Shown here in pieces: positions 9,785 to 42,410 of a stretch of DNA of 64,000 nucleotides. The notes below the pieces were generated by a model that saw only the letters and a program-made list of their open reading frames with translations, did not search any database and was not told the origin of the DNA. Origin of the DNA: Dehalococcoidia bacterium (GTDB lineage Bacteria > Chloroflexota > Dehalococcoidia > Dehalococcoidales > Fen-1064); the NCBI GenBank assembly GCA_011170375.1, contig DUEV01000006.1, positions 89,255-153,254 of the forward strand, written 5' to 3'. The position numbers and the translations under genes were made by a program. Position 1 is the stretch's first letter; each line of letters begins with the position of its first letter.

Positions 9785-9857
<73 letters not shown>

Positions 9858-9884
9858 GCTTTTGTTTCCTGATGTTCCCGCCTG

Positions 9885-21831: not shown

Positions 21832-23295
21832 CTACATCTCCAGTGCTAGTTTATCCATTTCTAGCTGTACTGGCATCGGATACTCACCAGTGAAACAGGC
21901 CATACAAAACAATTCGCGGGGCATATCCACTGCCTTGAGCAACCCCTCAACACTCAGATATCCGAGGGAATCAACTCCGATAAAGCTCCGGATTTCTTCA
22001 ACTCTATTACATGCCGCTATAAGCTCTTGGCGGGTAGCCATGTCCACTCCAAGGAAACAGGGATAGCGAATCGGTGGGGCGCAGACACGCATATGCACCT
22101 CTTTGACTCCAGCTTTCCTCAGCAGGTTAACGACCTTCGGGGTAGTGGTGCCACGAACAATAGTATCGTCAACCACCACTAGCCGCACACCCTCCAGCAT
22201 CCGAGGCAATGGGTTGAACTTCAAACGGACACCAAGGTCCCTTATACGCTGGTCAGGTTCAATAAAGGTACGGCCTACGTAGCGGTTCTTTAACAGGCCT
22301 TCGCAGAATGGAAGGCCGGTCGCACGAGAATATCCGATTCCGGCGGCTGTCGCCGAGTCTGGAACGCCCATCACCATATCAGCCTCGACCGGATGTTCCT
22401 CAGCCAACTGGGCACCCATGGCCTGCCTTACGGGATAAAGCAGCTTGCCGTTGATGATACTATCAGGCCGGGCAAAGTAGATATACTCAAAGATGCACAG
22501 GGCTCTTCTCTCTACCTGCTCTTGACAGCTAGCAAGTCCGCTCCCACTGATGCGAATAATCTCGCCCGGCTCAATTTCGCGAATGAAGTCTGCCCCGATA
22601 TGGTCAAGCGCACAGCTTTCTGAAGCAACAATCCAGCCCCCGTCTATCGTCCCTAGACAGACCGGTCGTATACCCCAGGGGTCACGAACAGCAAACAGGC
22701 TGTCTCTGGTAAGAAGACAGAGGGAAAAGGCCCCCTGCAACCGGTGCATAGCATAGCGAATCCTGCCCAACCAGTCTTTTTCCGAGGAGGAGATTATCAG
22801 GTTGGCGATAACTTCAGTATCTGTAGACGTACGGAAGGTATAGCCTGCCTGCACGAGTTCATCGTGCAGGTGTTCAGCATTAATAATATTGCCGTTATGG
22901 GCGATGGCAATAGCATTATTACCTTGGCCAACAATGAAAGGTTGCACGTTGGATACCCGGCTCGAACCGCGGGTAGAGTAACGATTATGGCCGATAGCAA
23001 TATGTCCGATGAGGCTGCTGAGGGTCTCTTCATCAAATACCTGCGAGACAAGTCCCATATCACCGGCAACCTGCATCCGCTTGCCGTTAGCAACAGCAAT
23101 GCCGGCACTTTCCTGACCACGATGCTGTAGGGCAAAGAGAGCGAAGTACGTGAGCCGAGCTACATCCTCGCCAGGACTGTAAATTCCGAAAACACCGCAA
23201 CTCTCGTGCAAGGTTACCCCTCTTAGCTCATCTCCTGCCGTTTTATTATACAACAACGGGCAAACAGTATCCATCACATTACTGGTCCAGTTCAA
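21832..23295 (-). CDS. purF: Amidophosphoribosyltransferase (glutamine-PRPP amidotransferase)
   Basis: CGVFGIY Ntn-cysteine after a short propeptide, HNGNIINA and VVVDDTIVRGTT PRTase motifs. The exact start is uncertain (TTG at 23295 or an internal ATG/GTG). Confidence 0.9.
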   Translation of the reverse strand: MNWTSNVMDTVCPLLYNKTAGDELRGVTLHESCGVFGIYSPGEDVARLTYFALFALQHRGQESAGIAVANGKRMQVAGDMGLVSQVFDEETLSSLIGHIAIGHNRYSTRGSSRVSNVQPFIVGQGNNAIAIAHNGNIINAEHLHDELVQAGYTFRTSTDTEVIANLIISSSEKDWLGRIRYAMHRLQGAFSLCLLTRDSLFAVRDPWGIRPVCLGTIDGGWIVASESCALDHIGADFIREIEPGEIIRISGSGLASCQEQVERRALCIFEYIYFARPDSIINGKLLYPVRQAMGAQLAEEHPVEADMVMGVPDSATAAGIGYSRATGLPFCEGLLKNRYVGRTFIEPDQRIRDLGVRLKFNPLPRMLEGVRLVVVDDTIVRGTTTPKVVNLLRKAGVKEVHMRVCAPPIRYPCFLGVDMATRQELIAACNRVEEIRSFIGVDSLGYLSVEGLLKAVDMPRELFCMACFTGEYPMPVQLEMDKLALEM

Positions 23296-23336
23296 TCATG
23301 GTTGATAATCTAATACAGATATTGCTAGAAGGGGTA

Positions 23337-23365
23337 TTGACAAATTAGAAAAGTTGTATTATTAT
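23337..23365 (+). promoter_or_regulatory. Strong sigma70-like promoter of the glutamate synthase operon
   Basis: TTGACA (23337-23342), 17-nt spacer, TATTAT (23360-23365). Followed by palindrome CGGCAA-tcgg-TTGCCG at 23374-23389. Confidence 0.6.
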
Positions 23366-23415
23366 ATGGCATACGGCAATCGGTTGCCGCATTCCGTCCC
23401 GCAGGAGTAACTCGA

Positions 23416-23901
23416 ATGGGTAGGGTCTACATCAAAAAAGAGGTGTGTATTGGCTGTCACCTGTGTGAGCTGTATTGTCAGCTACAACACTCTCGGTCAA
23501 CAGACCTGATTAAGGCTTTCAAAAGGGAGTCGATGCGCCCTTCACCCAGACTGAGGGTGGAGGAAAAGGAAGCGGTATCTTTCTCCGTTCGCTGCCAGCA
23601 TTGTGATGAAGCCCCATGTGTTTACGCCTGCCTCTCTGGCGCCCTCACACGCGATAGTAAAACAGGACTGGTTAAAGTAGATGAGGAGAGGTGCATCGGT
23701 TGCTGGACTTGTCTGTTGGTTTGCCCGATCGGTGCAATAAGTCGGGACACAGCAGAAAAGAAGGTGCTGAAATGCGACCTCTGTCAAGGAGAAGATGTTC
23801 CAGCCTGTGTTGCCAATTGCCCTAATGAGGCATTGATATATGTGGAGGTGCAAGATGAGAGTCATAGCACAGAAGGTAAGGTAATTGCCATGATTCAATG
23901 A
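23416..23901 (+). CDS. 4Fe-4S dicluster ferredoxin-like protein (CooF/HybA-like)
   Basis: 161 aa with CIGCHLCELYC, CQHCDEAPC, CIGCWTCLLVCP and CDLC..C..CP cysteine groups. Confidence 0.8.
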   Translation: MGRVYIKKEVCIGCHLCELYCQLQHSRSTDLIKAFKRESMRPSPRLRVEEKEAVSFSVRCQHCDEAPCVYACLSGALTRDSKTGLVKVDEERCIGCWTCLLVCPIGAISRDTAEKKVLKCDLCQGEDVPACVANCPNEALIYVEVQDESHSTEGKVIAMIQ

Positions 23902-23942
23902 GTATAGGGTCGATTGACTAAATCAAACAAAAGGAGGCTTAT

Positions 23943-24312
23943 CGTGTCATACGATTGGGGACCGCACTATATTATTCCTTCGTCAGTAATAACCACCTAT
24001 TCTGGTAATGTTCGGTTGCGAGAGGAATTTGATGACGACCTATTACGTCAGGAATTGAGTGAGCTGGGATTCTCAAGCCCCATCGCAAGGGTGAGTAATC
24101 CATGGTATTACAGGAAGAAAGACTCAACAACCTGGATCAAGATTGGTGAATCCGACGATATGCGCGAGAACTTTCCGGTTACCTGGGATACGCAGAAGCT
24201 TGAGAATGGGCAATACGAAGTAATGGGACTAATGCACGTCTATTTTAAAGCGAATGGCACGATAAAGGCCATTGCCCGGCAAAATGTGGTGGAGGTCACA
24301 GTCAAGAACTAG
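23943..24312 (+). CDS. Hypothetical protein inside the glutamate synthase operon
   Basis: I prefer the GTG at 23943, 6 nt after AAGGAGG, to the ORF-track start at 23914. No recognisable motif; predicted beta-rich. Confidence 0.4.
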
Positions 24313-24486
24313 ACCTAGAAAACACGACATCATTGTCATAGTTGGCTACAGTGCTGGCAACCATAGCAGTGTGGCGAAGGCTCTTGATAAGAGTAGTGAG
24401 CTCAGCCTTAGGTTCTACGACACCTCTAGCAACGTTACTTTAGGTGTAAGGCTTAGTAGTCCATAGGCGGATTGGGCAGGTAAATA

Positions 24487-25854
24487 ATGACAAAGGCAGA
24501 GAGAGTTAAATACCTGATTATCGGAAACTCCGCTGGAGGTATTGGGGCAGCGGAAGCTATCCGTGAGGTGGACAGGGCCGGGGCAATAGCCATCGTTTCC
24601 AGCGAGCCTTACCACGCCTACTCGCGTCCATTGATATCACAGTATCTAGTCGAAGGGCGCCCTCTGCAGAGAATGATGTTTCGACCGGCTGATTTCTACA
24701 AAGAGAAAAATATTCAGGCTATTCTGGGCCAGGAAGTAACGGGTCTTAATATAGACAAACATAACGTTAAGCTCGACGACGGTAGAAGCATAATCTGGGA
24801 GAAGCTGTTGCTGGCTACTGGTAGTTCACCCATTGTACCTAATATAGAAGGTATTGGTCTGAAAGGAGTCTTCACCTTCACCACGCGTGATGATGCCAGG
24901 GCAATCTATAAGTTCCTGAACCAATATCATACAGAGGTAAGGGCTGTGGTCATTGGCGGTGGTCTCATCGGGATAAGTGCTACTGAGGCACTGGTGAAGA
25001 GAGGGGTTAAAGTCACTATCGTCGAGATGAAGGAACGAATTTTGAACACCATCCTCGACGAAGAAGCATCATTTCTCGTGGAGGCATCTTTGAATGAGCT
25101 GGGGGTTGAAATCATCAACGGTCATATCGTGAGTAGGATTACTAGCTTCTTACCTGGTAGGGCTACTGGTATAGCCCTTGATAACGACCGACCGATACCC
25201 TGCGAGATGGTGATCGTAGCTGTCGGTGTGCAGCCACGCACCAAGATAGTTTCAGAAACCGGGATAAGGATAGACCGTGGTATATTAGTTGACCACCATA
25301 TGGCCACATCCAGCCCTGACGTCTATGCCTGCGGGGACGTAGCCGAGGCCTACGACTTTATCTACGACGAGAACCGGCTTACCCCAATCTGGCCTAATGC
25401 CTACATAGGGGGCAGAATCGCCGGCTTCAACATGGCTGGGCTGCCGACTGAATATCAGGGCGGAACATCAATGAATGCTATGAAATATTTTGGACTGGCT
25501 ATTGTTTCAGCGGGCATATTGACTCCACCTGATGACAGCTACGAGGTAATTAGTGAGAAACATGGTCATGTCTATAAAAAGGTTGTTCTTAAAAACGGAC
25601 TAATAGTGGGCGTGATTTTTAGCGGCGACATTGAGAAATCGGGCATTATATACAATCTCATGAAAAACAGAGTAAACGTCGATACCTTTAAGCAAGCTCT
25701 CATCGCTGACGATTTCGGCCTTATCTCTCTCCCTGAGGAAATCTGGCGACCACTGCTGGAACATACTTCGCCAGTAACACCTTCCCTGGCAACCTCAGAT
25801 AAGCAGCCTGAAAAGATGGCTATTGGAGATTTGGGATTGGTGTCTGGGAGGTAA
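24487..25854 (+). CDS. FAD/NAD(P)-dependent pyridine nucleotide-disulfide-type oxidoreductase (probable electron-input subunit)
   Basis: 455 aa. Two Rossmann dinucleotide motifs (YLIIGNSAGGIGAAEA; AVVIGGGLIGISA) and ACGDVA. Confidence 0.8.
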   Translation: MTKAERVKYLIIGNSAGGIGAAEAIREVDRAGAIAIVSSEPYHAYSRPLISQYLVEGRPLQRMMFRPADFYKEKNIQAILGQEVTGLNIDKHNVKLDDGRSIIWEKLLLATGSSPIVPNIEGIGLKGVFTFTTRDDARAIYKFLNQYHTEVRAVVIGGGLIGISATEALVKRGVKVTIVEMKERILNTILDEEASFLVEASLNELGVEIINGHIVSRITSFLPGRATGIALDNDRPIPCEMVIVAVGVQPRTKIVSETGIRIDRGILVDHHMATSSPDVYACGDVAEAYDFIYDENRLTPIWPNAYIGGRIAGFNMAGLPTEYQGGTSMNAMKYFGLAIVSAGILTPPDDSYEVISEKHGHVYKKVVLKNGLIVGVIFSGDIEKSGIIYNLMKNRVNVDTFKQALIADDFGLISLPEEIWRPLLEHTSPVTPSLATSDKQPEKMAIGDLGLVSGR

Positions 25855-25859
25855 CGATT

Positions 25860-26996
25860 ATGAAAGATATTAAACACGTGAACAACCCTTACAACGATGA
25901 TAAGGTCATTGATGCCTGCTCCATATTCGGGGCCATGGATGCCTCAGGCAAGAGGTTTTCTGGAGACGGTGTTATCAGGGCAATTGTCAACATGCATGAC
26001 CGTGGTAACGGGCTGGGTGGGGGATTCGCTATCTATGGTCTATATCCCGATTATGCTGACCTCTACGCCCTTCACGTAATGTACCTTAGCCCTGAGGGTA
26101 AGCAAGAGACAGAGGCTTTGCTAAAGGCAAACTTCAACATCATTGAAAAAGAAGAGGTGCCCACAAGGCAAACACCAATGATTGCCAATCCACCATTGGT
26201 GTGGCGCTACTTCCTTGAGGTGGATCACCGTAAGCCTGAACAAGAATCTGAGGATGACTACGTTGTGGACAGGGTGATGACCATAAATACCGGATTGCGC
26301 GATAGCTTCGTCTTCTCCAGTGGTAAGGATATGGCTGTGTTCAAGGGTGTTGGTTATCCTGAGGAGATAGCTGATTACTTCTGCCTGGAGCAATATGAGG
26401 GCTACCTTTGGACAGCACATGGCCGTTTCCCTACCAATACCCCGGGCTGGTGGGGCGGGGCCCACCCGTTTTGTATCCTAGACTGGACAGTTGTTCATAA
26501 TGGTGAAATTTCTTCATATGGAATAAACCAGCGTTACCTGGGGCAATTCGGTTATCACTGCACGATGCAGACTGATACTGAGGTGGTAGCATACGCTGTT
26601 GACCTGCTGATGCGCAAGCATAACCTGCCGATAGAGATAGTGGCCAAGATACTGGCACCACCTTTTTGGAGTGACATTGAGCGCATGTCGCCAGAAGAAC
26701 AGAAGCTCATGCTGACTCTGCGGCAGGTGTATGCCAGTCTACTCTTAAACGGTCCGTTCACAGTAATCATTGCTCATCATGGTGAGATGATCGGACTGAC
26801 CGACCGCATAAGGTTACGGCCACTCACGGTTGGAGAAAAGGGTAGCATGCTCTACCTTTCATCAGAAGAGTCGGCCATTCGTCTTATATGCCCTGAGCTG
26901 GATAAGACCTGGATTCCTGTGGGCGGTGAACCCGTCGTGGGTACGTTGCGGGCACCGACCCAGCCACAACCCGTGGCTGCCGGGGAGAAGGTATGA
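25860..26996 (+). CDS. Glutamate synthase glutamine-amidotransferase (class II) domain protein, archaeal-type split GltS
   Basis: 378 aa. CSIFGAMD Ntn-Cys after a leader, HGRFPTNT and VHNGEISSYG motifs. Confidence 0.8.
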   Translation: MKDIKHVNNPYNDDKVIDACSIFGAMDASGKRFSGDGVIRAIVNMHDRGNGLGGGFAIYGLYPDYADLYALHVMYLSPEGKQETEALLKANFNIIEKEEVPTRQTPMIANPPLVWRYFLEVDHRKPEQESEDDYVVDRVMTINTGLRDSFVFSSGKDMAVFKGVGYPEEIADYFCLEQYEGYLWTAHGRFPTNTPGWWGGAHPFCILDWTVVHNGEISSYGINQRYLGQFGYHCTMQTDTEVVAYAVDLLMRKHNLPIEIVAKILAPPFWSDIERMSPEEQKLMLTLRQVYASLLLNGPFTVIIAHHGEMIGLTDRIRLRPLTVGEKGSMLYLSSEESAIRLICPELDKTWIPVGGEPVVGTLRAPTQPQPVAAGEKV

Positions 26997-26997
26997 A

Positions 26998-27108
26998 ATG
27001 CTGACGAAAAGAGTTATTCCCTGCCTTGATGTGAGAAACGGTCGAGTTGTAAATAATGCTGGCGGAGAGGAAGAAGTGTTAAAACGGGGAATCTCAATAA
27101 GGGTCTAG
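26998..27108 (+). pseudogene. 36-codon ORF whose first 18 residues are a HisF N-terminus (gene relic or coupled leader ORF)
   Basis: MLTKRVIPCLDVRNGRVV versus the HisF consensus [20 protein letters not shown]. Resemblance stops after residue 18. The ATG is 1 nt after the upstream TGA. Confidence 0.55.
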
Positions 27109-27119
27109 GAGAAAAGGCA

Positions 27120-28625
27120 GTGAAGACCTATCTGACACCCAAATTTCTAGTACAACGAGACCCTGAACGCTGTATCCAGTGTCAGGTATGTGTCAATCAG
27201 TGCACTTTCGACACTCACTACTATGATGTCGAAGACGATGAGGTGAGAAGTCATGATGAGAACTGCATTGGCTGTCTCCGCTGTGTTCTCTTCTGCCCAA
27301 CCCGAGCGCTAACTATCAGACAAAACCACCTCGACTACAGAGACAACTACAATTGGCGCCCCGAGGTGATTGAAGATATCGTTAAGCAGGCGGAAACTGG
27401 CGGGGTACTCCTCACGGGCATGGGCAATGATAAAGGCCAGCGCATCTACTGGGACCATCTGGTTCTCAACGCCAGTCAGGTAACCAACCCGTCTATTGAC
27501 CCACTACGCGAGCCAATGGAGCTCACCACATATCTGGGGCGAAAACCTGATCGGATAGAACTCGACTCGGAATCGTCCACTTTGAAGACAGAATTAGCTC
27601 CTCAGGTAAGTCTGGAAGTCCCGGTAATGTTTGCTGCCATGTCTTATGGTGCGGTCAGTCTTAACGTACATGAATCTCTGGCTAGAGCTGCCACCGAGAT
27701 GGGCACTCTTTGGAACACTGGTGAGGGAGGGCTCCACTCCAAGTTATATAAGTATGGAAACAATACTATTGTCCAAGTAGCTTCAGGGCGCTTCGGTGTC
27801 CATGCTGAATATCTGGACGTAGCTAGAGTAATCGAAATCAAGATTGGGCAAGGAGCAAAGCCTGGAATTGGTGGACACCTCCCAGGGGAGAAGGTGAGCA
27901 GCGAGGTATCGCTAACGCGGATGATTCCCCAAGGAACTGATGCACTGTCACCGGCTCCACAGCACGATATTTACTCAATTGAAGACCTGGCACAGCTTAT
28001 CTACGCTTTAAAAGAGGCAACAAACTACAGCAAGCCGATATCGGTTAAAATCGCCGCTGTTCATAACTCGGCTGCTATTGCCAGTGGCATGGTGAGAGCC
28101 GGCGCCGACATTATTGTTCTAGATGGACTAAGGGGGTCTACAGGCGCTGCTCCCAAGATTATCCGCGACAATGTTGGCATTCCCATTGAGATGGCCTTGG
28201 CCTCGGTAGATAGCCGACTGAGGCAGGAGGGAATACGCAACCAGGCCTCTGTCGTCGTCTCAGGAGGCATAAGGAATAGCGGTGACGTGGCTAAGGCAAT
28301 CGCCCTCGGTGCTGATGCCGTCTATATCGGGACAGCAGCTCTCATTGCCCTAGGCTGTCATGTCTGCCAGCAGTGTCATACAGGGAAATGCGCTTGGGGC
28401 ATTTGCACCACTGACCTTCGCCTGACTAAGAGGGTTAACCCAGACATTGGTGCCCGCAGACTGACCAACCTGCTTCGAGGTTGGAGCATTGAACTCAAGG
28501 ACATACTGGGTGGGCTTGGAGTTAACGCTCTAGAGAGTTTGAGGGGGAATCGCCTGCATTTAAGAGGCGTTGGGTTGACTGATACCGAGCTCGATATCTT
28601 GGGAGTAAGGATGGCGGGGAGCTGA
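27120..28625 (+). CDS. Glutamate synthase FMN/synthase domain with N-terminal 2x[4Fe-4S] ferredoxin domain
   Basis: 501 aa. CIQCQVCVNQC / CIGCLRCVLFCP, then IEIKIGQGAKPGIGGHLPGEKV and GGTGAAP-like motifs typical of GltB domain 2. Confidence 0.9.
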   Translation: MKTYLTPKFLVQRDPERCIQCQVCVNQCTFDTHYYDVEDDEVRSHDENCIGCLRCVLFCPTRALTIRQNHLDYRDNYNWRPEVIEDIVKQAETGGVLLTGMGNDKGQRIYWDHLVLNASQVTNPSIDPLREPMELTTYLGRKPDRIELDSESSTLKTELAPQVSLEVPVMFAAMSYGAVSLNVHESLARAATEMGTLWNTGEGGLHSKLYKYGNNTIVQVASGRFGVHAEYLDVARVIEIKIGQGAKPGIGGHLPGEKVSSEVSLTRMIPQGTDALSPAPQHDIYSIEDLAQLIYALKEATNYSKPISVKIAAVHNSAAIASGMVRAGADIIVLDGLRGSTGAAPKIIRDNVGIPIEMALASVDSRLRQEGIRNQASVVVSGGIRNSGDVAKAIALGADAVYIGTAALIALGCHVCQQCHTGKCAWGICTTDLRLTKRVNPDIGARRLTNLLRGWSIELKDILGGLGVNALESLRGNRLHLRGVGLTDTELDILGVRMAGS

Positions 28626-28627
28626 AA

Positions 28628-29386
28628 ATGGGGAGATGGAGAAACTCGACAGCGAAAATAGATGCTGCCGGAATTTACTATCGAGAACTCAATGCCAAGC
28701 TGAGAGGCGTTGTCTCGAATGGCACCAAAAAAATAGAGCTCCACAATATCCATGGGCAGCGGTATATCGGCACCGACCTGGATAAGCCGGTGGAGCTCGA
28801 GATATTTGGAACTCCTGGTAATGACTTGGGAGCGTTTATGAACGGACCAAGGATTATTGTGCATGGCAATGCCCAAGATGGCTGCGGTAACACGATGGAT
28901 AGCGGTGAGATAATCATACATGGTCACGCTGGAGATATCGTTGGGCTATCGGCCAGAGGCGGGAAAATTTTTGTCCGAGACGATGTCGGCTACCGGGCAG
29001 GTATCCATATGAAGGAGTACCAGGACAAGAAGCCCGTGCTCGTCATCGGCGGAACCGCACAGGACTTTCTTGGCGAATACATGGCCGGAGGCATCTTAAT
29101 TCTGCTGGGTCTGAATCTAGCCGAAGGTGAACATCATAAATCCAGATTTATTGGTACCGGAATGCATGGCGGCGTCATCTACCTGAGGGGAAATGTCGAG
29201 AATTACCAGCTTGGTAAAGAAGTCGGTGTTACCGACCTGGATGAAGAGGAGCGCCACATCCTGAAGCAGTATGTTGATGAGTTTGCCGAACACTTTAACT
29301 ACCAACCAGATGAAATACTGGATCAGGAGTTCCTCGAGCTCTACCCTCGCTGGCTCCGACCCTATGGAAGGCTCTACGCATATTGA
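28628..29386 (+). CDS. Glutamate synthase GXGXG (alpha-subunit C-terminal) domain protein
   Basis: 252 aa. Repeated G-x-G beta-helix motifs (HGNAQDGCGNTMDSGEIIIHGHAGDIVG..GGKIFVRDDVGYRAG). Confidence 0.85.
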   Translation: MGRWRNSTAKIDAAGIYYRELNAKLRGVVSNGTKKIELHNIHGQRYIGTDLDKPVELEIFGTPGNDLGAFMNGPRIIVHGNAQDGCGNTMDSGEIIIHGHAGDIVGLSARGGKIFVRDDVGYRAGIHMKEYQDKKPVLVIGGTAQDFLGEYMAGGILILLGLNLAEGEHHKSRFIGTGMHGGVIYLRGNVENYQLGKEVGVTDLDEEERHILKQYVDEFAEHFNYQPDEILDQEFLELYPRWLRPYGRLYAY

Positions 29387-29403
29387 TTGAGCGGAGATAG
29401 GCA

Positions 29404-30084
29404 ATGCCAAACCTGCTAATAATGGCTCAAGAAAGCATGGAACTAACAGGGCTGATTTCGGGACTCATCCGAAGTGGCTTTGCTTGCTCTATTGTTCGTC
29501 ATGGTAATGGATTATTAGAGCAGATTGCGGCTCAGTCTCCGGATTTAATCCTAGCGGAAATGGATGGGCATCTGGCCAATTCCAGAATACAGGAACTGGT
29601 TAAGAGCATGAAACAGAAAAAGCGTACACCAGTTATGGCTCTGGTTCCGGGAGAGATGCTGGATAGCATTGATGGACAGCTTAACATTGCCGATGATTTT
29701 CTCGCCAGTCCTTACGATGACAGGGAACTGGTGTTGAGAATAAAACGACTTCTAAATCATAAGGCCGAGGGCGCGGCCAGCACTGAGCTAATAAAAAGTG
29801 ATGGTCTTGTAATAGACCTCGCTAAGTGCGGGGTAACTGTGGGAAGTAAGGTGGTACAGCTGACCTTTAAAGAATATGAGTTACTCAAATTCCTGGCAAG
29901 CAACAGAGGGCGCGTCTATACTCGTGAAGCCCTGCTCAATAAGGTCTGGGGCTATGATTACTACGGCGGTGACCGGACGGTAGATGTCCATGTAAGGAGA
30001 CTTAGAAGCAAGATTGAGGACTCGAAACATACATACATTGAGACGGTAAGAAACATTGGCTACAGGTTCATAAAGGAGGCATAG
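29404..30084 (+). CDS. OmpR/PhoB-family transcription regulator with a degenerate (pseudo-)receiver domain
   Basis: Canonical winged-helix C-terminus (LTFKEYELLKFL..RTVDVHVRRLRSKIE..TVRNIGYRF). The receiver lacks the acidic pair (LLIMAQES), the phospho-Asp (DLILAEMDG), the Thr (PVMALVP) and the Lys (DDFLASPY). Confidence 0.8.
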   Translation: MPNLLIMAQESMELTGLISGLIRSGFACSIVRHGNGLLEQIAAQSPDLILAEMDGHLANSRIQELVKSMKQKKRTPVMALVPGEMLDSIDGQLNIADDFLASPYDDRELVLRIKRLLNHKAEGAASTELIKSDGLVIDLAKCGVTVGSKVVQLTFKEYELLKFLASNRGRVYTREALLNKVWGYDYYGGDRTVDVHVRRLRSKIEDSKHTYIETVRNIGYRFIKEA

Positions 30085-30088
30085 GTCT

Positions 30089-31612
30089 GTGTGTGGCATT
30101 GTTGCCATATTCGGTCATAATTCCCAGCTTGGGGTACCACACTTGGATACCATGCTAAATCGGCTATCCCATCGAGGACCGGATGACAGAGGCACCTTTG
30201 CTAATGGACACATTACTTTGGGCCAAACCAGACTTTCCATAGTGGATGTCGCTGGAGGCAGGCAGCCAATATTCTCTGAAGATGGGGAGAAATGTGTTAT
30301 CTGCAACGGCGAGATATATAACCATCTGGACCTGAGAAAAGCGCTTCACCAGGAACACTGTTTTCGAACCAACTCAGACACTGAGGCAATTCTTCACCTC
30401 TTCGAGGAAGAGGGAACTCAATCGGTCTTGAAGCTAGATGGGATGTTTGCTTTCGTAGTTTATGACGGCAAAGATATTCTAGTTGCCAGAGACCCTTTAG
30501 GGATAAAGCCCCTCTATTACAGTCAGGAGAATAGCTGCCTCCTCTTCGCCTCTGAGATTAAGGCGTTGCAGGGAATTGCGGGTAATATTCAGGAATTCCC
30601 CGCCGGTTATTACTACTCCCCCAGCCAAGGACTGACCCAGTACTACCGCCTGCCAGTAATCCCTGAGTGGCAGAGTAATGTCAGTGAAATAAGTCAGAAG
30701 CTACACGATAAGCTGTATGGAGCCGTGGAAAAACGCTGGATGTCTGATGTCCCTGTAGGTTGCTTTCTCAGCGGTGGCCTTGATAGCAGTCTTATCTGTG
30801 CGGTATCAAAACGTAACTTCGACCACCTCGACACGTTCTCCGTTGGTCTGGAGACAGAATCACAGGATTTGATATATGCCAGGAAGGTCGCTCAGTTTCT
30901 GGGTACAAATCACCACGAATATGTCTACACTATGAGTGACGTCCTTGAGGCGCTACCTGATGTTATCTACCACCTGGAGTCCTTTGACCCGGCGCTGGTA
31001 AGAAGCGCTATCCCCTGTTACTTTGTTTCTCGATTGGCCAGAGAGTATGTAAAGGTTATCCTCACTGGGGAAGGGTCGGATGAGGTATTTGCCGGGTATC
31101 ACTACTTTAAGCGGTTTAGTGATAAGCAAGATGTGTACCAAGAGTCTGTCAGGATTCTTACCGGGCTGCACAACATGAACTTACAGAGGGTTGACCGGGC
31201 CACCATGGCCCATTCGATAGAAGGGAGAGTACCCTTTCTTGATATTGGCTTCGTCGAATATGCCATGTCCATCGACCCGAGACTCAAACTAGCAGGGAAG
31301 AGTAAACGGATCGAAAAGTGGCTGCTAAGACAGGCTTTCACCCGTTACCTTCCTGACGAGATAATCTGGAGACCGAAGATGGAGTTTGCCGCTGGCTGTG
31401 GCTCTGAAGAGTTGATAACTGACATGGTTGAGGATGAAATCTCAGATGCTGAATTCGAACGGGAAAGGCAACGGCTACAGGAAATTAACATTTCCTCTAA
31501 AGAAGATCTGTACTATTTTCGGATATTCTATGATTTCTTCGGCTCTGACATTGATGCCACTGCCATCGGCAGATGGAAAGGCGGTTTTTCTAGAGAAGGT
31601 TCAGATTTATAG
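30089..31612 (+). CDS. asnB: Asparagine synthase (glutamine-hydrolysing)
   Basis: 507 aa. (M)CGIVAIFG Ntn-Cys, SGGLDSS PP-loop. Confidence 0.9.
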   Translation: MCGIVAIFGHNSQLGVPHLDTMLNRLSHRGPDDRGTFANGHITLGQTRLSIVDVAGGRQPIFSEDGEKCVICNGEIYNHLDLRKALHQEHCFRTNSDTEAILHLFEEEGTQSVLKLDGMFAFVVYDGKDILVARDPLGIKPLYYSQENSCLLFASEIKALQGIAGNIQEFPAGYYYSPSQGLTQYYRLPVIPEWQSNVSEISQKLHDKLYGAVEKRWMSDVPVGCFLSGGLDSSLICAVSKRNFDHLDTFSVGLETESQDLIYARKVAQFLGTNHHEYVYTMSDVLEALPDVIYHLESFDPALVRSAIPCYFVSRLAREYVKVILTGEGSDEVFAGYHYFKRFSDKQDVYQESVRILTGLHNMNLQRVDRATMAHSIEGRVPFLDIGFVEYAMSIDPRLKLAGKSKRIEKWLLRQAFTRYLPDEIIWRPKMEFAAGCGSEELITDMVEDEISDAEFERERQRLQEINISSKEDLYYFRIFYDFFGSDIDATAIGRWKGGFSREGSDL

Positions 31613-31710
31613 CTAGGCTGATGCATCAATCCCATGTAACACAGATTTAACATCCCGGAAATATTTCGGAAACAATAACGGGCTAGGCTGAAAGAAAAAG
31701 GAGGTTATTG

Positions 31711-33281
<1,571 letters not shown>

Positions 33282-33370
33282 GCAAGTTGCAGGGGTAAAC
33301 ATGCAGATAAGAAATTGATGATGAACAGTAATATTCCGACCAAACGAATAATCGCGAATTGGAGGCAATA

Positions 33371-34714
33371 ATGATTAACAGAAGCAGAGAAGAAGCTAAG
33401 GATTACGTTCTAAAGATGGCTGAGGAGCATGATGTTAAGTTTATCAGGCTGTGGTTCACCGATATCCTGGGTATGCTCAAGAGTTTTGCCATCACGGTGG
33501 AGGAACTGGAAGGGGCTTTAGAGGAGGGAATGGGTTTTGATGGTTCGTCAATAGAAGGGTTTGCCCGCATCGATGAAAGCGATATGGTAGCTCTGCCTGA
33601 CCCCGACACCTTTCAGTTGCTACCCTGGCAACCCCGCGAACACCGCGCGGTAGCCCGAATGTTCTGCGATATCTTGAAGCCCGGCGGTGAACCTTTTGAA
33701 GGTGACCCCAGATATGTCTTGAAAAAGAATTTGAAGCGGACAGCTGATTTAGGCTGCACCTTCTATGTGGGGCCAGAACTGGAATACTTCTATTTCCAGA
33801 ACTCGGGGGGGACTGAGCCATTAGACCAGGGAGGCTATTTCGACCTGACTCCGCGTGATGCAGCCACCGATATGAGGAAGGAAACAGTGCTAGCACTGGA
33901 AGAGTTGGGTATTGGCGTCGAATATTCCCACCATGAGGTTGCTACCAGCCAGCATGAAATAGACATGAGGTACACTGATGCCCTGACTATGGCCGATAAT
34001 GTGATGACATACCGCTTAGTGGTCAAAGAAGTAGCCTTGAAGTACGGCGTCTATGCTACTTTTATGCCCAAGCCGGTTTTCGGCATAAACGGCAGCGGTA
34101 TGCACGTACACCAGTCACTTTTCAAAGGAGAAAGTAATGCTTTCTTCGACAAGAATGACGAATATCACCTATCCCAGATGGCCAGGTACTATATAGCCGG
34201 CCTACTCAAACATGCTCCTGAACTTACTGCTGTGACCAATCAGTGGATTAACTCTTACAAACGTCTGGTTCCCGGCTACGAGGCACCGGTTTATCTCTCC
34301 TGGGCACGGCGTAACCGTTCTGATTTAGTCCGAGTCCCGGAGTACCGGCCTGGAAGGGAAAAGGCGACCCGCGTTGAGTTCAGGTCTCCTGACCCCGCCT
34401 GCAATCCTTACTTGGCTTTCAGTGTGATGCTGGCCGCCGGACTGGAAGGTATCGAAAAGGAATATGACGTACCCGAGCCAATCGAAGAAAATGTATATGA
34501 GATGACTGAAGACGAGAGGCGGAAGAGAGGAATAGGTACCTTACCTGCCAGCCTGTTGGAAGCCATACTACTAACAGAGAAAAGCGTGCTGGTGCGAAAG
34601 GCTCTAGGTGAGCATGTTTTCTCAGCTTTCATCCAGAACAAGAAAATAGAGTGGGACCACTACCGAACCCAGGTGACCGAATATGAGCTTAAGAGATACT
34701 TACCAATACTGTGA
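33371..34714 (+). CDS. glnA: Glutamine synthetase type I
   Basis: FTDILG, GFDGSSIEGF, GSGMHVHQS, NSYKRLVPGYEAP and the RVE.R motif series. ATG at 33371 after GGAGG. Confidence 0.92.
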   Translation: MINRSREEAKDYVLKMAEEHDVKFIRLWFTDILGMLKSFAITVEELEGALEEGMGFDGSSIEGFARIDESDMVALPDPDTFQLLPWQPREHRAVARMFCDILKPGGEPFEGDPRYVLKKNLKRTADLGCTFYVGPELEYFYFQNSGGTEPLDQGGYFDLTPRDAATDMRKETVLALEELGIGVEYSHHEVATSQHEIDMRYTDALTMADNVMTYRLVVKEVALKYGVYATFMPKPVFGINGSGMHVHQSLFKGESNAFFDKNDEYHLSQMARYYIAGLLKHAPELTAVTNQWINSYKRLVPGYEAPVYLSWARRNRSDLVRVPEYRPGREKATRVEFRSPDPACNPYLAFSVMLAAGLEGIEKEYDVPEPIEENVYEMTEDERRKRGIGTLPASLLEAILLTEKSVLVRKALGEHVFSAFIQNKKIEWDHYRTQVTEYELKRYLPIL

Positions 34715-34730
34715 GTAATGAGAGGTTGCT

Positions 34731-36488
34731 ATGTCGCAGTGGGCTAACACGCGTCGGTTGCGAATTGGGATGGCGCAAATCAATACTACCGTGGGTGATT
34801 TTGCCGGCAACAGGCAAAAAATACTAAAAGCTATGGACGAAGCCAGGACTTTGCACATAGACCTGCTTGCGTTCCCTGAACTCGCTATCTGCGGTTATCC
34901 ACCTGAGGACCTCCTGTTCAAGCCACGCTTTATTGCCGAGAATCTGCGGTCGTTAGATAAGGTAGTCGAAGCCTCCCCAGGACTTACTATCGTGGTTGGC
35001 TTTGTCGACGCTAAAGAAGACATCTACAATGCTGCAGCTATAATCCACGATGGCAAGCTAGCTGGCATCTATCACAAGATATACCTGCCCAATTATGGTG
35101 TCTTTGACGAGAATCGCTACTTCCGAGCGGGGAGCAAATGCCCTGTCTATGGCATCGCTGGCATTAGTGTCGGCGTCAGCATCTGCGAAGATATCTGGTA
35201 CGAGGCGGGGCCAGCTACCACCCAGGCTTACTCTGGGGCCGAGGTTATAGTCAACATAAGTGCCTCACCATACCACTTCGGTAAGGGAAGCTTTAGGGAA
35301 AGAATGGTAGCGACACGTGCTGCAGACAACGTGGCCGCTTTTGCCCTCTGCAACCTAGTAGGTGGGCAAGATGAGCTAGTTTTCGACGGAAATAGCATTG
35401 TACTGGATGAGAAAGGACAGTTGATAGCCAGAGGCAAACAGTTCGAGGAAGACCTAATAGTAGCTGACCTTGATGTCGAATCCGTCTTTCGGGCGCGCCT
35501 CCATGATTCTAGATGGAAGAAAGAGCTACTCCTCCACGAAGAGCAAGGATGGCGTAGTGCCCCCAAAATAGTGATATCCGAAGCGCCATTTAACACTGAA
35601 AAACCGTCGCTACCGCCCAGACAAGTTGAGGTGCAGGGCTTTCCGGGCGAGGTCTATGATGCTTTGGTGCTGGGAACTCGTGACTATATCCTCAAGAATG
35701 ATTTTGAGAAAGTGCTGATAGGTCTTTCCGGAGGAATAGACTCCAGCGTGGTAGCCGCTATCGCCGTTTATGCCTTAGGGAGCGTAAACGTGGTCGGGGT
35801 GGCCATGCCTTCAAGATACTCTTCTCCCGGCAGCGTATCAGATGCTGAACTTTTGGCTAAGAATCTGGGCATAAGGCTAATGACTATTCCTATTGAGAAA
35901 GTGTTTCAGGCATATCTGGATACACTGGCCGAGCATTTTAAAGGCACAGAGCCTAATGTGGCTGAAGAGAATATTCAAGCTAGAATCAGGGGCAATATCC
36001 TGATGGCACTATCAAACAAGTTTGGTTGGCTGGTTCTTACAACGGGTAACAAAAGCGAAATGGCTACGGGCTATACCACCTTATACGGAGACATGGCCGG
36101 TGGTTTTGCCGTGATAAAAGATGTACCGAAGACAATGGCTTACGAATTAGCCAGGTACCGAAACTCGCTGGCTGAGTCAGAACTAATACCACGTACAATC
36201 ATAGATAAGCCTCCGTCAGCCGAGTTAAGGTCCGACCAAAGGGATATTGACTCCCTACCACCGTACGAGCTACTCGACCCGGTATTAACTGCATATGTTG
36301 AGGAAGACAAAAGTGTCGAACAGATTATTGGTATGGGAGTCGATGAAAAGGCAGTCAAGCGTGCGGCCCGATTGGTAGACAAGAGTGAGTACAAACGCCG
36401 GCAGTCGCCACCAGGCGTGAAGATAACCCCTCGAGCCTTTGGTAGGGACAGAAGGTTGCCTATCACCAACAGATTCGAGGGATGGTGA
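34731..36488 (+). CDS. nadE: Glutamine-dependent NAD+ synthetase (CN-hydrolase plus synthetase domains)
   Basis: 585 aa. N-terminal nitrilase-like domain (FPELAICGYPPEDL, CEDIW) and GLSGGIDSS PP-loop domain. Confidence 0.9.
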   Translation: MSQWANTRRLRIGMAQINTTVGDFAGNRQKILKAMDEARTLHIDLLAFPELAICGYPPEDLLFKPRFIAENLRSLDKVVEASPGLTIVVGFVDAKEDIYNAAAIIHDGKLAGIYHKIYLPNYGVFDENRYFRAGSKCPVYGIAGISVGVSICEDIWYEAGPATTQAYSGAEVIVNISASPYHFGKGSFRERMVATRAADNVAAFALCNLVGGQDELVFDGNSIVLDEKGQLIARGKQFEEDLIVADLDVESVFRARLHDSRWKKELLLHEEQGWRSAPKIVISEAPFNTEKPSLPPRQVEVQGFPGEVYDALVLGTRDYILKNDFEKVLIGLSGGIDSSVVAAIAVYALGSVNVVGVAMPSRYSSPGSVSDAELLAKNLGIRLMTIPIEKVFQAYLDTLAEHFKGTEPNVAEENIQARIRGNILMALSNKFGWLVLTTGNKSEMATGYTTLYGDMAGGFAVIKDVPKTMAYELARYRNSLAESELIPRTIIDKPPSAELRSDQRDIDSLPPYELLDPVLTAYVEEDKSVEQIIGMGVDEKAVKRAARLVDKSEYKRRQSPPGVKITPRAFGRDRRLPITNRFEGW

Positions 36489-36549
36489 CAAATTGGCCAC
36501 GGAATAGGTAGCTTAGAATGGAGAAAATAACAGGGTCGCGAAGACAAAT

Positions 36550-37644
36550 ATGAGTAAAAAGGCATTTTTAGCCTTAGAAGATGGCTCGGTCCATCACGGA
36601 TTCACCTTTGGTGCGGAGGTTGATACCTTCGGCGAGGTAGTATTCTGCACTGCCATGACTGGTTACCAGGAGATGCTGACTGACCCCTCCTATGCTGGGC
36701 AGATTCTGGTTCCCACTTATCCCCTTATCGGCAACTACGGTATCAATGAGCAGGATATTGAGTCGGCCAAAATACAGGTCAGGGGGTTTGTTGTTAGAGA
36801 GGTGTGTCTTGAGCCCAGCCACTATCTGAGTCAGAAGACAATTCACCAGCATCTGGCCGAAAGTGGCATCCCCGGAATCCATGGGGTGGATACCCGCGCA
36901 ATAACTCGCCGACTTCGCTCGAGTGGTGTGATGATGGGCATGATAACCAGCAGCAAGTCTCCGCAACAGGCTCTGGAAGAATTAAAGAAAGTGCCCAGCT
37001 ATGGCTCCATCGATTTCGTCAAGCAGGTGACTACTCCAACCTCCTATCAGTGGCAGCCGGAGGACTCGGCGCCACTATACAACATAGTTGTGCTGGACTG
37101 TGGTCTGAAATATAACATCCTTCGCATCCTGAACCGCCTGGAGTGTAGCGTCACCGTTGTGCCCTGTACTATGTCTGCTGGAGAAATCCTCTCTCTAGAG
37201 CCAGATGGTATTCTCCTCTCGCCGGGCCCCGGCGACCCCGACATACCGAAGGTAAACTACGTCATTGACACCGTCAAGCAGCTCGTCGGTAAAAAGCCGA
37301 TAATAGGCATCTGCTTCGGCCAACAGCTCATTCACCGTGCCTTCGGTGGCTGCCATTTCAAGCTCAAGTTTGGCCACCGCGGTGGTAATCACCCTGTCCG
37401 TGAACTGGCTACCGGCAGAATCCATATCACGGCGCAAAATCATGGTTACGCCGTTGACCCAGATACTCTCGGAGAAGACCTGGAAATCACTCACATAAAC
37501 ATGAATGACAATACAGTAGAAGGCCTAAAGCACAGGGAGTTACCCATATTCGCCATCCAGTATCACTCCGAGGCTTCACCAGGTCCCTGGGACAATACCT
37601 ATCTCTTCGACAAATTTATTGAGATGGTAAAGGAGGCGAAATGA
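36550..37644 (+). CDS. carA: Carbamoyl-phosphate synthase small (glutaminase) subunit
   Basis: 364 aa. GICFGQQL triad Cys, [10 protein letters not shown]. Confidence 0.92.
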
Positions 37645-37660
37645 ATGTAGGAGTTATTGT

Positions 37661-40600: not shown

Positions 40601-40861
40601 CATGAGGGTAGGCCTAATATCACGGATGCCATAAGCAACAGGGAAGTTCAGCTAGTAATAAACACGCCGGCGGGGAAACTAAGTGCACATGATGACTCGT
40701 ACATCCGAAAGGCTGCTATAAAGTACAAGGTGCCATATATCACCACGCTAGCAGCCGCCATGGCAGCCTCCAAGGGAATAATAGCTTACCGTGAGGGTAA
40801 ATCAGATGTCAGGTCGCTGCAAAGTTACCACGACGACGTGAAGGAAATGCAAGAGAGCTGA
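37661..40861 (+). CDS. carB: Carbamoyl-phosphate synthase large subunit
   Basis: 1066 aa. Duplicated ATP-grasp halves ([17 protein letters not shown] / [17 protein letters not shown]) and an MGS-like tail. TTG start. Confidence 0.95.
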
Positions 40862-40945
40862 TCCTCCCCTCCGAATATTATCAGATACATTGATTGAGGC
40901 AGTAGGTGGAATTCGACGTGCTACTCACAACTTTCGTAACAGGCA

Positions 40946-40954
40946 TGCTATAAT
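40946..40954 (+). promoter_or_regulatory. Extended -10 promoter box TGCTATAAT upstream of nrpR
   Basis: GCATGCTATAAT at 40943-40954, 38 nt before the TTG start of nrpR. Confidence 0.5.
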
Positions 40955-40991
40955 AACCTGAAGATTATCCAAAGAAACAAGGAAGCTTCTG

Positions 40992-41987
40992 TTGGTACAA
41001 GGTTCTAGCTCCGAAACAGAGATAAAGATAATAGCCATTCTTAAGGTCTTGAGTGAGTCCTCTGAGCCACTCGGGTCAATTACTATTGCCCGTAAACTGG
41101 AGCAGGAGGGAGTTTTCCTGAGTGAGAGAGCAATCAGATATCACCTGAGAATAACAGATGAGCGTGGTTTTACCCAGCCGGGCGGTCGGGATGGCAGAAT
41201 GATTACTCCAGAAGGGCGGCAAGAGGTTAAGGACGCACTGGCACCGGAGCAGCTTGGTTTTGTGCGTGATAAGCTCGAGATGTTAGCTTTCCAAACCACA
41301 TTCGACCCACAAAAGAGAACCGGCCTGTTATCTGTAAACACCTCCTTAATTGACAAGAATAATTTCAAAAAGGCATTATCAGCCATGAGGGATGCATTCA
41401 AGGCCGGAATTTGTGTCAGCGACTTAGTGGCCACCGCGTCTGAAGGAGAAAGGCTTGGTTCGGTAATCGTGCCCAGTGGGAAAATCGGCCTGGCTACCGT
41501 CTGCAGCGTGGTGATATATGGGGTACTTCTGAAGGCAGGTGTGCCTACAGAATACAGGTTTGGAGGATTGCTCGAGGTTAGAAATTCAAAACCACGGCGC
41601 TTTGTAGCCATAATTGACTATCAGGGTACATCCCTCGACCCCTCTGAACAATTCATACGTGGCAACATGACGAGCGTTAATGAAGTTGCAAGGACAGGGA
41701 ATGGTAAGGTATTAGGTGTGTTCCGTACTCTGCCAGCACCGGCGAAAGAAATCGTCGAGGAGAAAATCGCTTTGCTCAAGGAAGCCGGCATCGGTGGGGT
41801 CTATGCTCTGGGCAATACCAGCGAGTCGATTTGTCGTGTTCCAGTGACTTTAAATCGGTTTGGTATCGTTCAACTCGGTGGTCTTAATCCAGTGGCGGCA
41901 GCCGTTGAGGCGGGAATCGAGATAGAAAACATAGCTGAGAGCGGGCTAATTGATTTTCAGCAGCTTCAACCTGTTTGGCAGATTTAG
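40992..41987 (+). CDS. nrpR: NrpR-like nitrogen repressor (winged HTH plus one NrpR/DUF128 domain)
   Basis: 331 aa. N-terminus IKIIAILKVL..SEPLGSITIARKLEQEGVFLSERAIRYHLRITDERGF..GRMITPEG resembles methanogen NrpR as I remember it. Single-domain length. Confidence 0.7.
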   Translation: MVQGSSSETEIKIIAILKVLSESSEPLGSITIARKLEQEGVFLSERAIRYHLRITDERGFTQPGGRDGRMITPEGRQEVKDALAPEQLGFVRDKLEMLAFQTTFDPQKRTGLLSVNTSLIDKNNFKKALSAMRDAFKAGICVSDLVATASEGERLGSVIVPSGKIGLATVCSVVIYGVLLKAGVPTEYRFGGLLEVRNSKPRRFVAIIDYQGTSLDPSEQFIRGNMTSVNEVARTGNGKVLGVFRTLPAPAKEIVEEKIALLKEAGIGGVYALGNTSESICRVPVTLNRFGIVQLGGLNPVAAAVEAGIEIENIAESGLIDFQQLQPVWQI

Positions 41988-42279
41988 CCCGAATATCCTG
42001 TCCTATCATGGATTTCGCTCTATTAGAAAGCGACCGAGCTTTATGCGGTAGAATTGCTCGGTTCCCGACGTTACTTCCATCGCCCTTCGCGACTGAAGAA
42101 AAAGTGTGAAATACTCGTGCTCAGTCTGCTTTCGGCAACGGTGATTCCCTAGGAAATGGAGAAGCTTCTTGGAAGGAGACCGACGGCCATGCTTTACTTG
42201 GGAAATGTACGACTTACTGAATTTGCTTAACTCGGCGATTTACGTTACGCTTAAGGAGTTAAGCAACCGTAGCGGGTGT

Positions 42280-42364: not shown

Positions 42365-42410
42365 ACACCAGACTTCGAGATAGCCTTCAATAAGATGGGG
42401 TGACTTAGAA

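Follow-up and report, generated by a model that had tools for sequence, protein, structure and literature searches.

A GlnR-like atypical OmpR/PhoB regulator with a degenerate receiver and its predicted four-site operator upstream of amt–glnB in a Dehalococcoidia nitrogen cluster

The 64-kb stretch of a Dehalococcoidia genome analyzed here (64,000 nucleotides, hereafter the window) carries, at positions 29404-30084 of the plus strand, an open reading frame (ORF; stop codon included) for a GlnR-like atypical OmpR/PhoB regulator of 226 amino acids. The gene lies within a nitrogen cluster in which a purF-like amidotransferase gene on the minus strand is followed by genes for Fer4, a 132-amino-acid protein, Pyr_redox_2, gltB GATase, gltB FMN, GXGXG, and the regulator, and then by asnB, amt, glnB, glnA, nadE, carA, carB, and nrpR. 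The original prediction, made from the DNA letters alone, had described an orphan OmpR-family regulator between gltS and asnB that would act independently of phosphorylation in nitrogen assimilation, alongside PII and NrpR. Both its placement, with the split gltS genes upstream and asnB 5 bp downstream, and its siting near glnB (32943-33281) and nrpR (40992-41987) are confirmed, and the functional proposal is supported in part by the analyses described below.

In a protein-cluster search, the window protein matched a protein from a Dehalococcoidia metagenome-assembled genome (MAG) with 100% identity. The public (NCBI) annotation begins at M7 (position 29422) and gives a protein of 220 amino acids. 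That start would remove strand β1, and a GGAG sequence sits 9 nt 5′ of the M1 codon; the family alignment and strand β1 of the AlphaFold2 model support M1 at 29404 as the true start. Pfam Trans_reg_C (PF00486) matches residues 150-222 with 101 bits (E 3e-29), in line with the canonical winged-helix output domain that had been recognized at the outset, and Response_reg reaches only 16.8 bits, under its curated cut-off of 30.2 bits. Many OmpR/PhoB equivalogs of NCBIfam were also matched (MtrA, PhoB, YycF, NblR, and others), all far under their own cut-offs. The predicted pseudo-receiver domain occupies 29404-29760 (plus strand, amino acids 1-119), as delimited by alignments, AlphaFold2 secondary structure, and orthologue residue counts, and the winged-helix DNA-binding domain 29785-30075 (plus strand, amino acids 128-224), as delimited by the domain search, contact residues, and Foldseek. 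The recognition helix is of the GlnR type, R191-T-V-D-V195-H-V-R198-R199-L-R201.

A search of solved structures with the DNA-binding domain alone returned three GlnR entries at the top (8HML, 101 bits; 8HIG, 99 bits; 8HIH, 96 bits), ahead of VicR (80 bits), PhoB (76 bits), and RegX3 (74 bits). Actinobacterial GlnR is represented by S. coelicolor SCO4159, M. tuberculosis Rv0818, and S. erythraea GlnR, with the PDB entries 8HIH, 8HML, 8HIG, and 4O1H/4O1I; 8HIH is the structure of a transcription activation complex containing M. tuberculosis GlnR, and 8HML that of the S. erythraea GlnR DNA-binding domain on DNA (PMC10235972). In S. erythraea GlnR, bases are contacted by R186, V190, R193, and R194, and the DNA backbone by T149, K151, R169, W177, T187, H191, R196, T209, R211, N212, and Y215 (PMC10235972). 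All 15 residues are identical in the window protein at a fixed alignment offset of 5, the equivalents being R191, V195, R198, and R199 for the bases and T154, K156, R174, W182, T192, H196, R201, T214, R216, N217, and Y220 for the backbone. In the operator-linked orthologues described below, 12 of the 15 are invariant, with slight variation at K156, R198, and N217. Foldseek gave TM values of 0.89-0.91 on the S. erythraea GlnR DNA-binding domain; its PDB search with the full-length model was not discriminating and returned generic OmpR/PhoB matches.

Over its full length, the window protein aligns with a Nocardioides GlnR at 40% identity (130 bits), compared with 31% identity (84 bits) for a canonical kinase-linked regulator from a related Dehalococcoidia contig. 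The Nocardioides protein was verified as GlnR by a match of 294 bits to 8HIH and by matches to the receiver structures 4O1I and 4O1H. Because the DNA-binding domain is closest to that of GlnR, the DNA contacts are identical, and an element of the GlnR-box type lies upstream of amt, sequence comparison argues for homology to GlnR beyond mere analogy and makes GlnR the closest relative of the window protein among characterized proteins. The original prediction had called the protein functionally analogous to GlnR; the link itself holds, and the wording proved too cautious in view of the DNA-binding domain, the contacts, and the operator.

Neighbor-joining trees separated 33 pseudo-receiver proteins from 19 canonical regulators with a bootstrap of 100/100 for full-length sequences and of 92/100 for the receiver alone, but of only 22/100 for the DNA-binding domain alone. 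The 33 proteins represent the window family, other Dehalococcoidia, Armatimonadota, Omnitrophota, glnA-linked Acidimicrobiia, classical GlnR, and further matches from a pattern scan (Massilia, Leptospirales, and Fimbriimonadaceae). The canonical outgroups came from a pattern scan of genome contigs, which used two peptide patterns and was biased toward GlnR-like helices; the scan served as context only and not as evidence of relatedness. Common ancestry with GlnR at the subfamily level is thus likely but not proven by these alignments.

The family is large. At least 120 protein clusters share at least 62% identity with the window protein, and those that carry an organism name belong to Chloroflexota. 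Names of cluster members gave almost no taxonomy. When 1.84 billion cluster representatives were searched with a profile, 1,758 proteins scored E ≤ 1e-30. The 150 best were examined: the helix signature of actinobacterial GlnR, VWGYDY[YF]GG[DT]RTVDVH[IV]RRLR, or a form close to it is present in all but one or two, the acidic pair and the threonine are missing from nearly all, and the acceptor column holds D in 88 and E in 23. Family members go by generic database names, for instance "response regulator transcription factor" or "PhoP." The literature searched, the coverage of which was incomplete, contained no account of a GlnR-type regulator or a GlnR box from Chloroflexota or Dehalococcoidia, which is an absence of evidence only; a search for work on nitrogen limitation in Dehalococcoides likewise gave nothing relevant.

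In the AlphaFold2 model, the N-terminal domain adopts a (βα)5 receiver fold of five strand–helix units (mean predicted local distance difference test score, 76.4), with β1 at residues 3-7, β2 at 27-31, β3 at 48-52, β4 at 77-82, and β5 at 98-102; with the receiver alone, phmmer retrieved CpxR at E 1e-10. Active-site residues were assigned from pairwise HMMER alignments to the RegX3, CpxR, TorR, PmrA, and GlnR structures and from a MAFFT alignment with 19 canonical regulators. The pairwise and MAFFT alignments agree in placing A8/Q9 (codons at 29425-29430, plus strand) on the acidic pair, E52 (codon at 29557-29559, plus strand) on the phosphoacceptor aspartate, and S102 on the lysine. The threonine position is V81 in most alignments, with P82 in the TorR alignment and a gap in the CpxR alignment. 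These assignments uphold the replacements originally read by eye for the acidic pair, the threonine, and the lysine. For the acceptor, which had been read as "A-E," the absence of an aspartate stands and the precise position is E52, A51 being the preceding strand residue.

A profile alignment and a model of the pocket had been proposed as checks, and both were carried out: no alignment puts an aspartate at the acceptor position, and the substituted residues occupy the C-terminal ends of β1, β3, β4, and β5, which are the canonical active-site positions. Across 26 relatives with 63-80% identity, E10 is invariant; A8, E52, and D54, the last of these two residues past E52 in the β3–α3 loop, are nearly so; position 81 is V, I, or L; and position 102 is mostly S. 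D98 and F99 are invariant in the same family alignment.

A broader view comes from 57 regulators encoded at operator-linked loci, which with the window protein make 58 distinct sequences. In this set the acceptor column holds D in 25, E in 21, A in 9, N in 2, and V in 1; therefore, an acidic residue is not required at the acceptor site. Column 8 is A, T, G, or S and never acidic; the threonine column is V, L, I, M, or A and never T or S; the lysine column is K in 25, S in 17, and E in 8; and column 54 is D, N, S, or G. By contrast with the variable acceptor, E108, R112, and R115 of helix 5 are invariant (58/58). These residues, together with D98 and F99, are consistent with a conserved interface and a retained helix 4–strand 5–helix 5 dimerization face. 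Residue conservation indicates strong constraint on the DNA-reading surface and on the probable dimer face, a pattern that fits a phosphorylation-independent regulator dimerizing constitutively. Alignments and model together thus describe a pseudo-receiver that has kept its fold and is predicted to lack the capacity for aspartyl phosphorylation. Decay into a pseudogene was considered as an explanation and rejected: upward of 100 sequence clusters retain the protein, and residues at the DNA contacts and at the interface are invariant.

A regulator that depends on phosphorylation after all, through another acceptor such as D54 and a distant kinase, would draw on the near invariance of D54 in the closest family and on the kinase genes present at 60837-63817. 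However, the acidic pair that binds the metal, the threonine, and the lysine are all gone, and among orthologues column 54 alternates between D, N, S, and G and column 52 between D, E, A, N, and V. The kinase genes, moreover, lie more than 30 kb away and flank a receiver gene of their own (61663-62151, between kinase genes at 60837-61634 and 62189-63817). We therefore regard this explanation as highly improbable. No histidine kinase gene occurs within 30 kb of the regulator, these being the only kinases in the 64 kb, which bears out the reported absence of an adjacent kinase gene. The 60837-63817 signaling cluster itself, unrelated to the nitrogen cluster, encodes a HisKA/HATPase_c kinase, a single-domain receiver, and a receiver–GAF–HisKA_3–HATPase_c hybrid kinase.

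In the asnB–amt spacer lies a predicted four-site operator (31636-31673, plus strand) of 5-bp direct repeats at 11-bp phasing: GTAAC (31636-40), TTAAC (31647-51), GAAAT (31658-62), and GAAAC (31669-73). A −10-like hexamer, TAGGCT (31684-31689, plus strand), follows 10 nt after site 4, so that the stretch from 31636 to 31689 reads GTAAC-acagat-TTAAC-atcccg-GAAAT-atttcg-GAAAC, 10 nt, TAGGCT. This is the single exact match in the 64 kb to four copies of the degenerate pattern KWAAY(n6). With a half-site matrix built from other loci only, the window being left out, it scores 31.7 bits, compared with a maximum of 16.9 bits in 30 dinucleotide shuffles. A scan with the same matrix for further two-, three-, or four-site boxes at glnA, Fer4/gltS, nrpR, carA, and the rest of the window found none above the shuffle maximum, which leaves direct control of the gltS or nrpR promoters unsupported. 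Two candidates picked out by eye were set aside: a "GTAAA-n6-GATAA..." element upstream of glnA, for which the matrix scan was negative, and a GGAA...TTCG palindrome inside the operator as a possible NrpR site, which is not conserved in other loci.

The layout is shared by 11 operators from 10 loci, down to 45% identity of the regulator, with the consensus GTAAC(A), TTAAC, GTAAT, GAAAC(A), and, 10 nt on, TAnnnT, which is present in all 11. The A at half-site position 4 is near-invariant (31/32 half-sites); in GlnR half-sites, an A at position 4 is irreplaceable (review). Four-site arrays were found in two of the other, mostly actinobacterial loci that were fetched (L052 and L069; loci are designated by L numbers), neither of them in an actinobacterial GlnR locus. 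In a reverse test, metagenomes were scanned for the exact 20-base operator pattern, and 80 loci were read. Where enough downstream sequence was available, an amt start lay within 400 bp downstream of the operator in 69 of 75 loci, and in 3 further loci the operator stood directly before glnA. Upstream sequence sufficed in 68 loci, and in 52 of these a regulator homologue (41-87% identity) ended no more than 2.6 kb before the operator, usually at a distance of 16-140 bp. The conserved operator and its linkage to both amt and the regulator gene, observed alongside the GlnR homology and the degenerate receiver, make 31636-31673 the probable target of the regulator.

The linkage is correlative, and the four-repeat element could be bound by a different OmpR-type regulator while the window protein acts elsewhere in the genome; 16 of the 68 metagenome loci have no regulator within 2.6 kb upstream. 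Eighteen loci were inspected, namely these 16 and two near the cut-off, and 7 of them have Fer4 and amt arranged divergently, with Fer4 nearby on the opposite strand; in that arrangement the regulator would be located at the distal end of the operon running the other way. The GTAAC/GAAAC half-sites with n6 spacing also fit the GlnR recognition residues, which are invariant here, and a different binder is accordingly quite improbable. In five of the metagenome loci (L099, L123, L128, L142, and L163), the operator lies in a divergent Fer4/amt intergenic region, in which one spacer serves both operons.

Placing the −10 hexamer at −12 to −7 gives the four sites approximate positions of −60 to −56, −49 to −45, −38 to −34, and −27 to −23. 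Of 73 distinct metagenome operators, 54 have TAnnnT at precisely +10 and 68 have it somewhere between +8 and +13. The window operator has no −35 match at the expected position, and in the metagenome operators the match to TTGACA at the expected position is 1.2/6, against about 1.5 at random. The amtB promoter bound by actinobacterial GlnR has 5-bp a and b sites (gTnAc and GaAAC) with 6-nt spacers in the order a1-b1-a2-b2, on which four protomers line up head-to-tail; a non-optimal −35 lies among the sites, b2 being on its downstream side, and the scaffold extends from −64 to +13 (PMC10235972). In silico, the window operator matches that promoter in layout and geometry, with four sites of the gTnAc/GaAAc kind at 6-nt spacing between approximately −60 and −25 and a poor −35. 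The presence of a −10 and the lack of a −35 would point to a protein that recruits RNA polymerase and activates.

Alternatively, four sites over the −35 to −25 region might block RNA polymerase at amt when nitrogen is plentiful. Sites 3 and 4 do overlap the core promoter region, and GlnR is reported as an activator or a repressor depending on binding position (PMC10235972). Yet a −35 that is about random is what activator-dependent promoters typically show, the same geometry accompanies activation in the GlnR–polymerase complex, and it would make little physiological sense to coexpress glutamate synthase with a protein that represses ammonium uptake. Repression at amt is therefore unlikely, and activation remains the preferred sign of regulation.

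The predicted direct target is the amt–glnB operon (31708-33281, plus strand), defined by the operator at its 5′ side and by Pfam matches: amt (31708-32946, plus strand; Ammonium_transp), with a likely ATG start at 31711, and glnB/PII (32943-33281, plus strand; P-II). The glnA gene for glutamine synthetase (33359-34714, plus strand; Pfam) lacks an operator site of its own within the window and may be reached by read-through from the amt promoter. It probably starts at an internal ATG (MINRSREE…) rather than at the TTG at 33359. In the PII–glnA spacer (33282-33358), a mini-ORF of five codons, MQIRN*, comes after a Shine-Dalgarno-like sequence; a similar mini-ORF, MRARE*, occurs in L083 (13752-13845), and no Rfam family match was obtained.

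Upstream of the regulator, the genes Fer4–132-amino-acid protein–Pyr_redox_2–gltB GATase–(hisF remnant)–gltB FMN–GXGXG (23416-29386, plus strand; Pfam) are probably one operon. A strong sigma-70-type promoter, TTGACA-17-TATTAT, with 11 of 12 consensus positions, lies upstream of Fer4 at 23337-23365 (plus strand), and the same promoter is found in L081, L083, L084, and L085. The regulator starts 17 bp after GXGXG, no terminator-like site was found between the two, and the regulator is followed after 5 bp by asnB (asparagine synthetase; 30089-31612, plus strand; Pfam), which begins with GTG (MCGI...). From this arrangement, the Fer4 promoter probably also drives the regulator.

Nine bp after the −10 of this promoter lies a palindrome, CGGCAA-TCGG-TTGCCG (CGGCAATCGGTTGCCG; 23374-23389, plus strand). 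In family loci totaling 615 kb, where 0.15 exact matches to CGGYAA-n4-TTRCCG would be expected, there are 7: one beside an amt operator and the other six a short way upstream of Fer4. The half-sites vary independently between CGGCAA and CGGTAA, changes that would break an RNA hairpin and so point to a protein-binding DNA operator. The palindrome is thus a probable repressor operator. NrpR, being encoded in each of the clusters, is the obvious candidate for its binder. In the window, nrpR (HTH_12 + NRD1_2; 40992-41987, plus strand; Pfam) is the second nitrogen regulator of the cluster, and its position at the cluster end is conserved in L081, L083, L084, and L086. NrpR is known as a euryarchaeal repressor that senses 2-oxoglutarate; it belongs to a family unrelated to OmpR/PhoB proteins and binds palindromes rather than direct repeats. 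Given the shared cluster and its occurrence directly upstream of the regulator in relatives, NrpR is probably part of the same circuit.

In some loci, the genes of the two kinds of regulator are neighbors. L083 (8984-9997), L002 (4239-5216), and L003 (6806-7780) carry a second NrpR gene immediately 5′ of the regulator gene, and in L084 the corresponding gene (9128-9997) encodes an NRD1_2-only protein of 289 amino acids without a DNA-binding domain. The gap to the regulator is 3-4 bp in L083 and L084, and an NrpR-type gene adjoins the regulator in 13 of the 52 metagenome loci that have a regulator upstream of the operator. This adjacency would suit a pseudo-receiver that is itself a sensor, switched by a ligand (2-oxoglutarate or glutamine) or a partner (PII or the NrpR-type sensor-domain protein) instead of by abundance, as would the acidic patch of E10, E52, and D54 that is conserved in the close family and the fact that the signal of actinobacterial GlnR is still unknown in the literature. 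On the other hand, no such gene is found directly upstream of the regulator in the window or adjacent to it in L081, L085, L086, and most other loci, and the variable E52 and D54 columns of the operator-linked orthologues argue against a fixed ligand pocket there. Control by a ligand or by a partner such as PII, as the original prediction had it, gained no support beyond the hint of gene adjacency; we consider a sensing pseudo-receiver less likely than not and prefer control by abundance.

Based on these data, a simple model can be proposed, to which we assign a probability of about 0.72 as a whole: a GlnR-family pseudo-receiver regulator binds the four repeats and activates amt–glnB, with its abundance as the preferred level of control. 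The winged helix would bind head-to-tail, probably as four protomers (two dimers), on the four 5-bp direct repeats, centered near −58, −47, −36, and −25 of the amt–glnB promoter, and the regulator would recruit RNA polymerase at a promoter with a −10 and without a −35. The output would be increased ammonium uptake and PII expression, and perhaps glnA expression by read-through. Control by abundance would follow the position of the gene near the end of the Fer4–gltS operon, with only asnB after it: a repressor, possibly NrpR, at the Fer4 palindrome would gate glutamate synthase and the regulator together. Nitrogen limitation would then derepress glutamate synthase along with the activator, which would in turn switch on amt–glnB.

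Several points weigh against this model. Binding to the operator, the number of protomers, and whether the protein activates or represses are inferences from sequence, as is the mode of activity control, and a site near −25 could in principle hinder RNA polymerase. A tree of the DNA-binding domain alone separates GlnR-like from canonical proteins with a bootstrap of only 22/100. In actinomycete GlnR, Asp50, Arg52, and Thr9 form a charge network that stabilizes the homodimer (review), and the D48A variant in M. smegmatis has a null phenotype (review); the network is not conserved in the window protein, where the equivalents are E52, D54, and A8. Within the single window, the palindrome pattern is not above chance, and NrpR is a candidate for its binder. 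Finally, only one operator was detected in the 64 kb, and a scope comparable to that of a master regulator, which the comparison with GlnR had implied, is not supported.

GlnR and the window protein are alike in being orphan OmpR/PhoB-type regulators with receivers that lack a phosphorylation pocket, in the DNA-binding domain, for which GlnR is the best solved match with 15/15 DNA contacts, and in their targets in nitrogen assimilation, which for the window protein are predicted. They differ in origin, the window protein coming from Chloroflexota (Dehalococcoidia) and not from Actinobacteria, with approximately 40% overall identity. The conserved aspartate of GlnR is glutamate in the window protein and D, E, A, N, or V across operator-linked orthologues; the GlnR gene stands alone, whereas the window gene sits inside a gltS–amt–glnA cluster beside NrpR; and the window yielded a single target site. 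GlnRII of Streptomyces, an actinomycete paralogue set beside the window protein by description only, likewise combines a GlnR-like DNA-binding domain with a degenerate N-terminal domain in which the conserved residues for phosphorylation are missing, the lack of a nearby kinase, and proximity to glutamine synthetase genes. Cyanobacterial NblR, ChxR of Chlamydia, and HP1043 of Helicobacter have the OmpR/PhoB architecture, too, and their receivers are likewise not phosphorylated; ChxR also has a glutamate at the acceptor position. NblR was among the better NCBIfam matches (113.7 bits against a 300-bit cut-off), and the atypical orphan regulator 2HQR was among the Foldseek matches. These proteins belong to other DNA-binding domain lineages and have other regulons, and none is as similar as GlnR.

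The gene order of the window recurs in L081-L087, with regulators 64-74% identical, mostly without asnB and usually with hisH and hisF embedded, and in the species representatives L001-L003, with regulators 45-50% identical. More distant relatives have the orders gltS–glnA–regulator (Armatimonadota) and nadE–regulator (Omnitrophota), and approximately 28 loci, mostly from Acidimicrobiia/Actinomycetota, show glnA–regulator; classical actinomycete GlnR genes stand alone and are not linked to glnA. In many MAGs of Acidimicrobiia and other Actinomycetota, a GlnR-like pseudo-receiver regulator lies directly 3′ of glnA, often with nadE near (L008, L010, L011, L013-L019, L021, L023, L024, L026, L029, L030, L032, L035-L037, L040, L047, L058, L063, and L071).

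Other features of the cluster vary between lineages. The asnB gene is an insertion, placed after the regulator and before the amt operator, that differs from lineage to lineage and is also seen in several metagenome loci; it is accompanied by an ABM-domain gene in L087 (10680-12574), reduced to a 5′ remnant in L086 (7204-7395), and absent in L081 and L083-L085. The spacer between gltB GATase and FMN holds a 5′ hisF remnant (26997-27119, ORF 26830-27108; …MLTKRVIPCLDVRNGRVV…); hisH and hisF are intact inside the gltS operon of L081 and L083-L087, and the window has lost both. The conserved small protein after Fer4 (23914-24312; 122-132 amino acids, without a Pfam match) occurs in the window, L081, L084, and L087, and no match was found in L083. 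Downstream of nrpR, 42234-42329 resembles the 3′ end of a tRNA or tmRNA (…GGGTTCGAATCCCCCCGCTGCCAC) and may be an integration-site remnant; Rfam tmRNA scores 12.5 bits (E 0.21), and ARAGORN finds none. No riboswitch or leader RNA was found in the cluster by Rfam, searched at the gathering threshold over the whole window and at an E-value threshold over 23200-42500; the only matches were a tRNA-Met and the sub-threshold tmRNA-like fragment.

GlnR is treated as an actinobacterial regulator in the literature searched, which calls its activating signal unknown. The kind of system described here is already known; what stands out is its phylogenetic reach, the dispensable aspartate, and the coupling to NrpR. 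The locus points to a large clade outside Actinobacteria, made up of GlnR-like proteins with pseudo-receivers and known by generic annotations, that retains the GlnR DNA-reading residues and the four-site amtB promoter architecture, so that a functional annotation can now be offered for generically named family genes, together with a predicted nitrogen-control cis-element for Dehalococcoidia, which are mostly uncultured organisms. More speculatively, and on balance rather improbably, GlnR-type control of ammonium uptake may be ancient and common to Chloroflexota, Actinomycetota, Armatimonadota, and others, with the long-sought input to such regulators coming, in Dehalococcoidia, from the archaeal-type NrpR system, either via the palindrome, at which NrpR would gate the operon of the regulator, or via NrpR-type 2-oxoglutarate sensor-domain proteins that would bind the pseudo-receiver itself. 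The replacement of the "essential" GlnR aspartate by Glu, Ala, or Asn constitutes a natural experiment, and the coupling to NrpR genes suggests a testable route to the control of phosphorylation-independent regulators.

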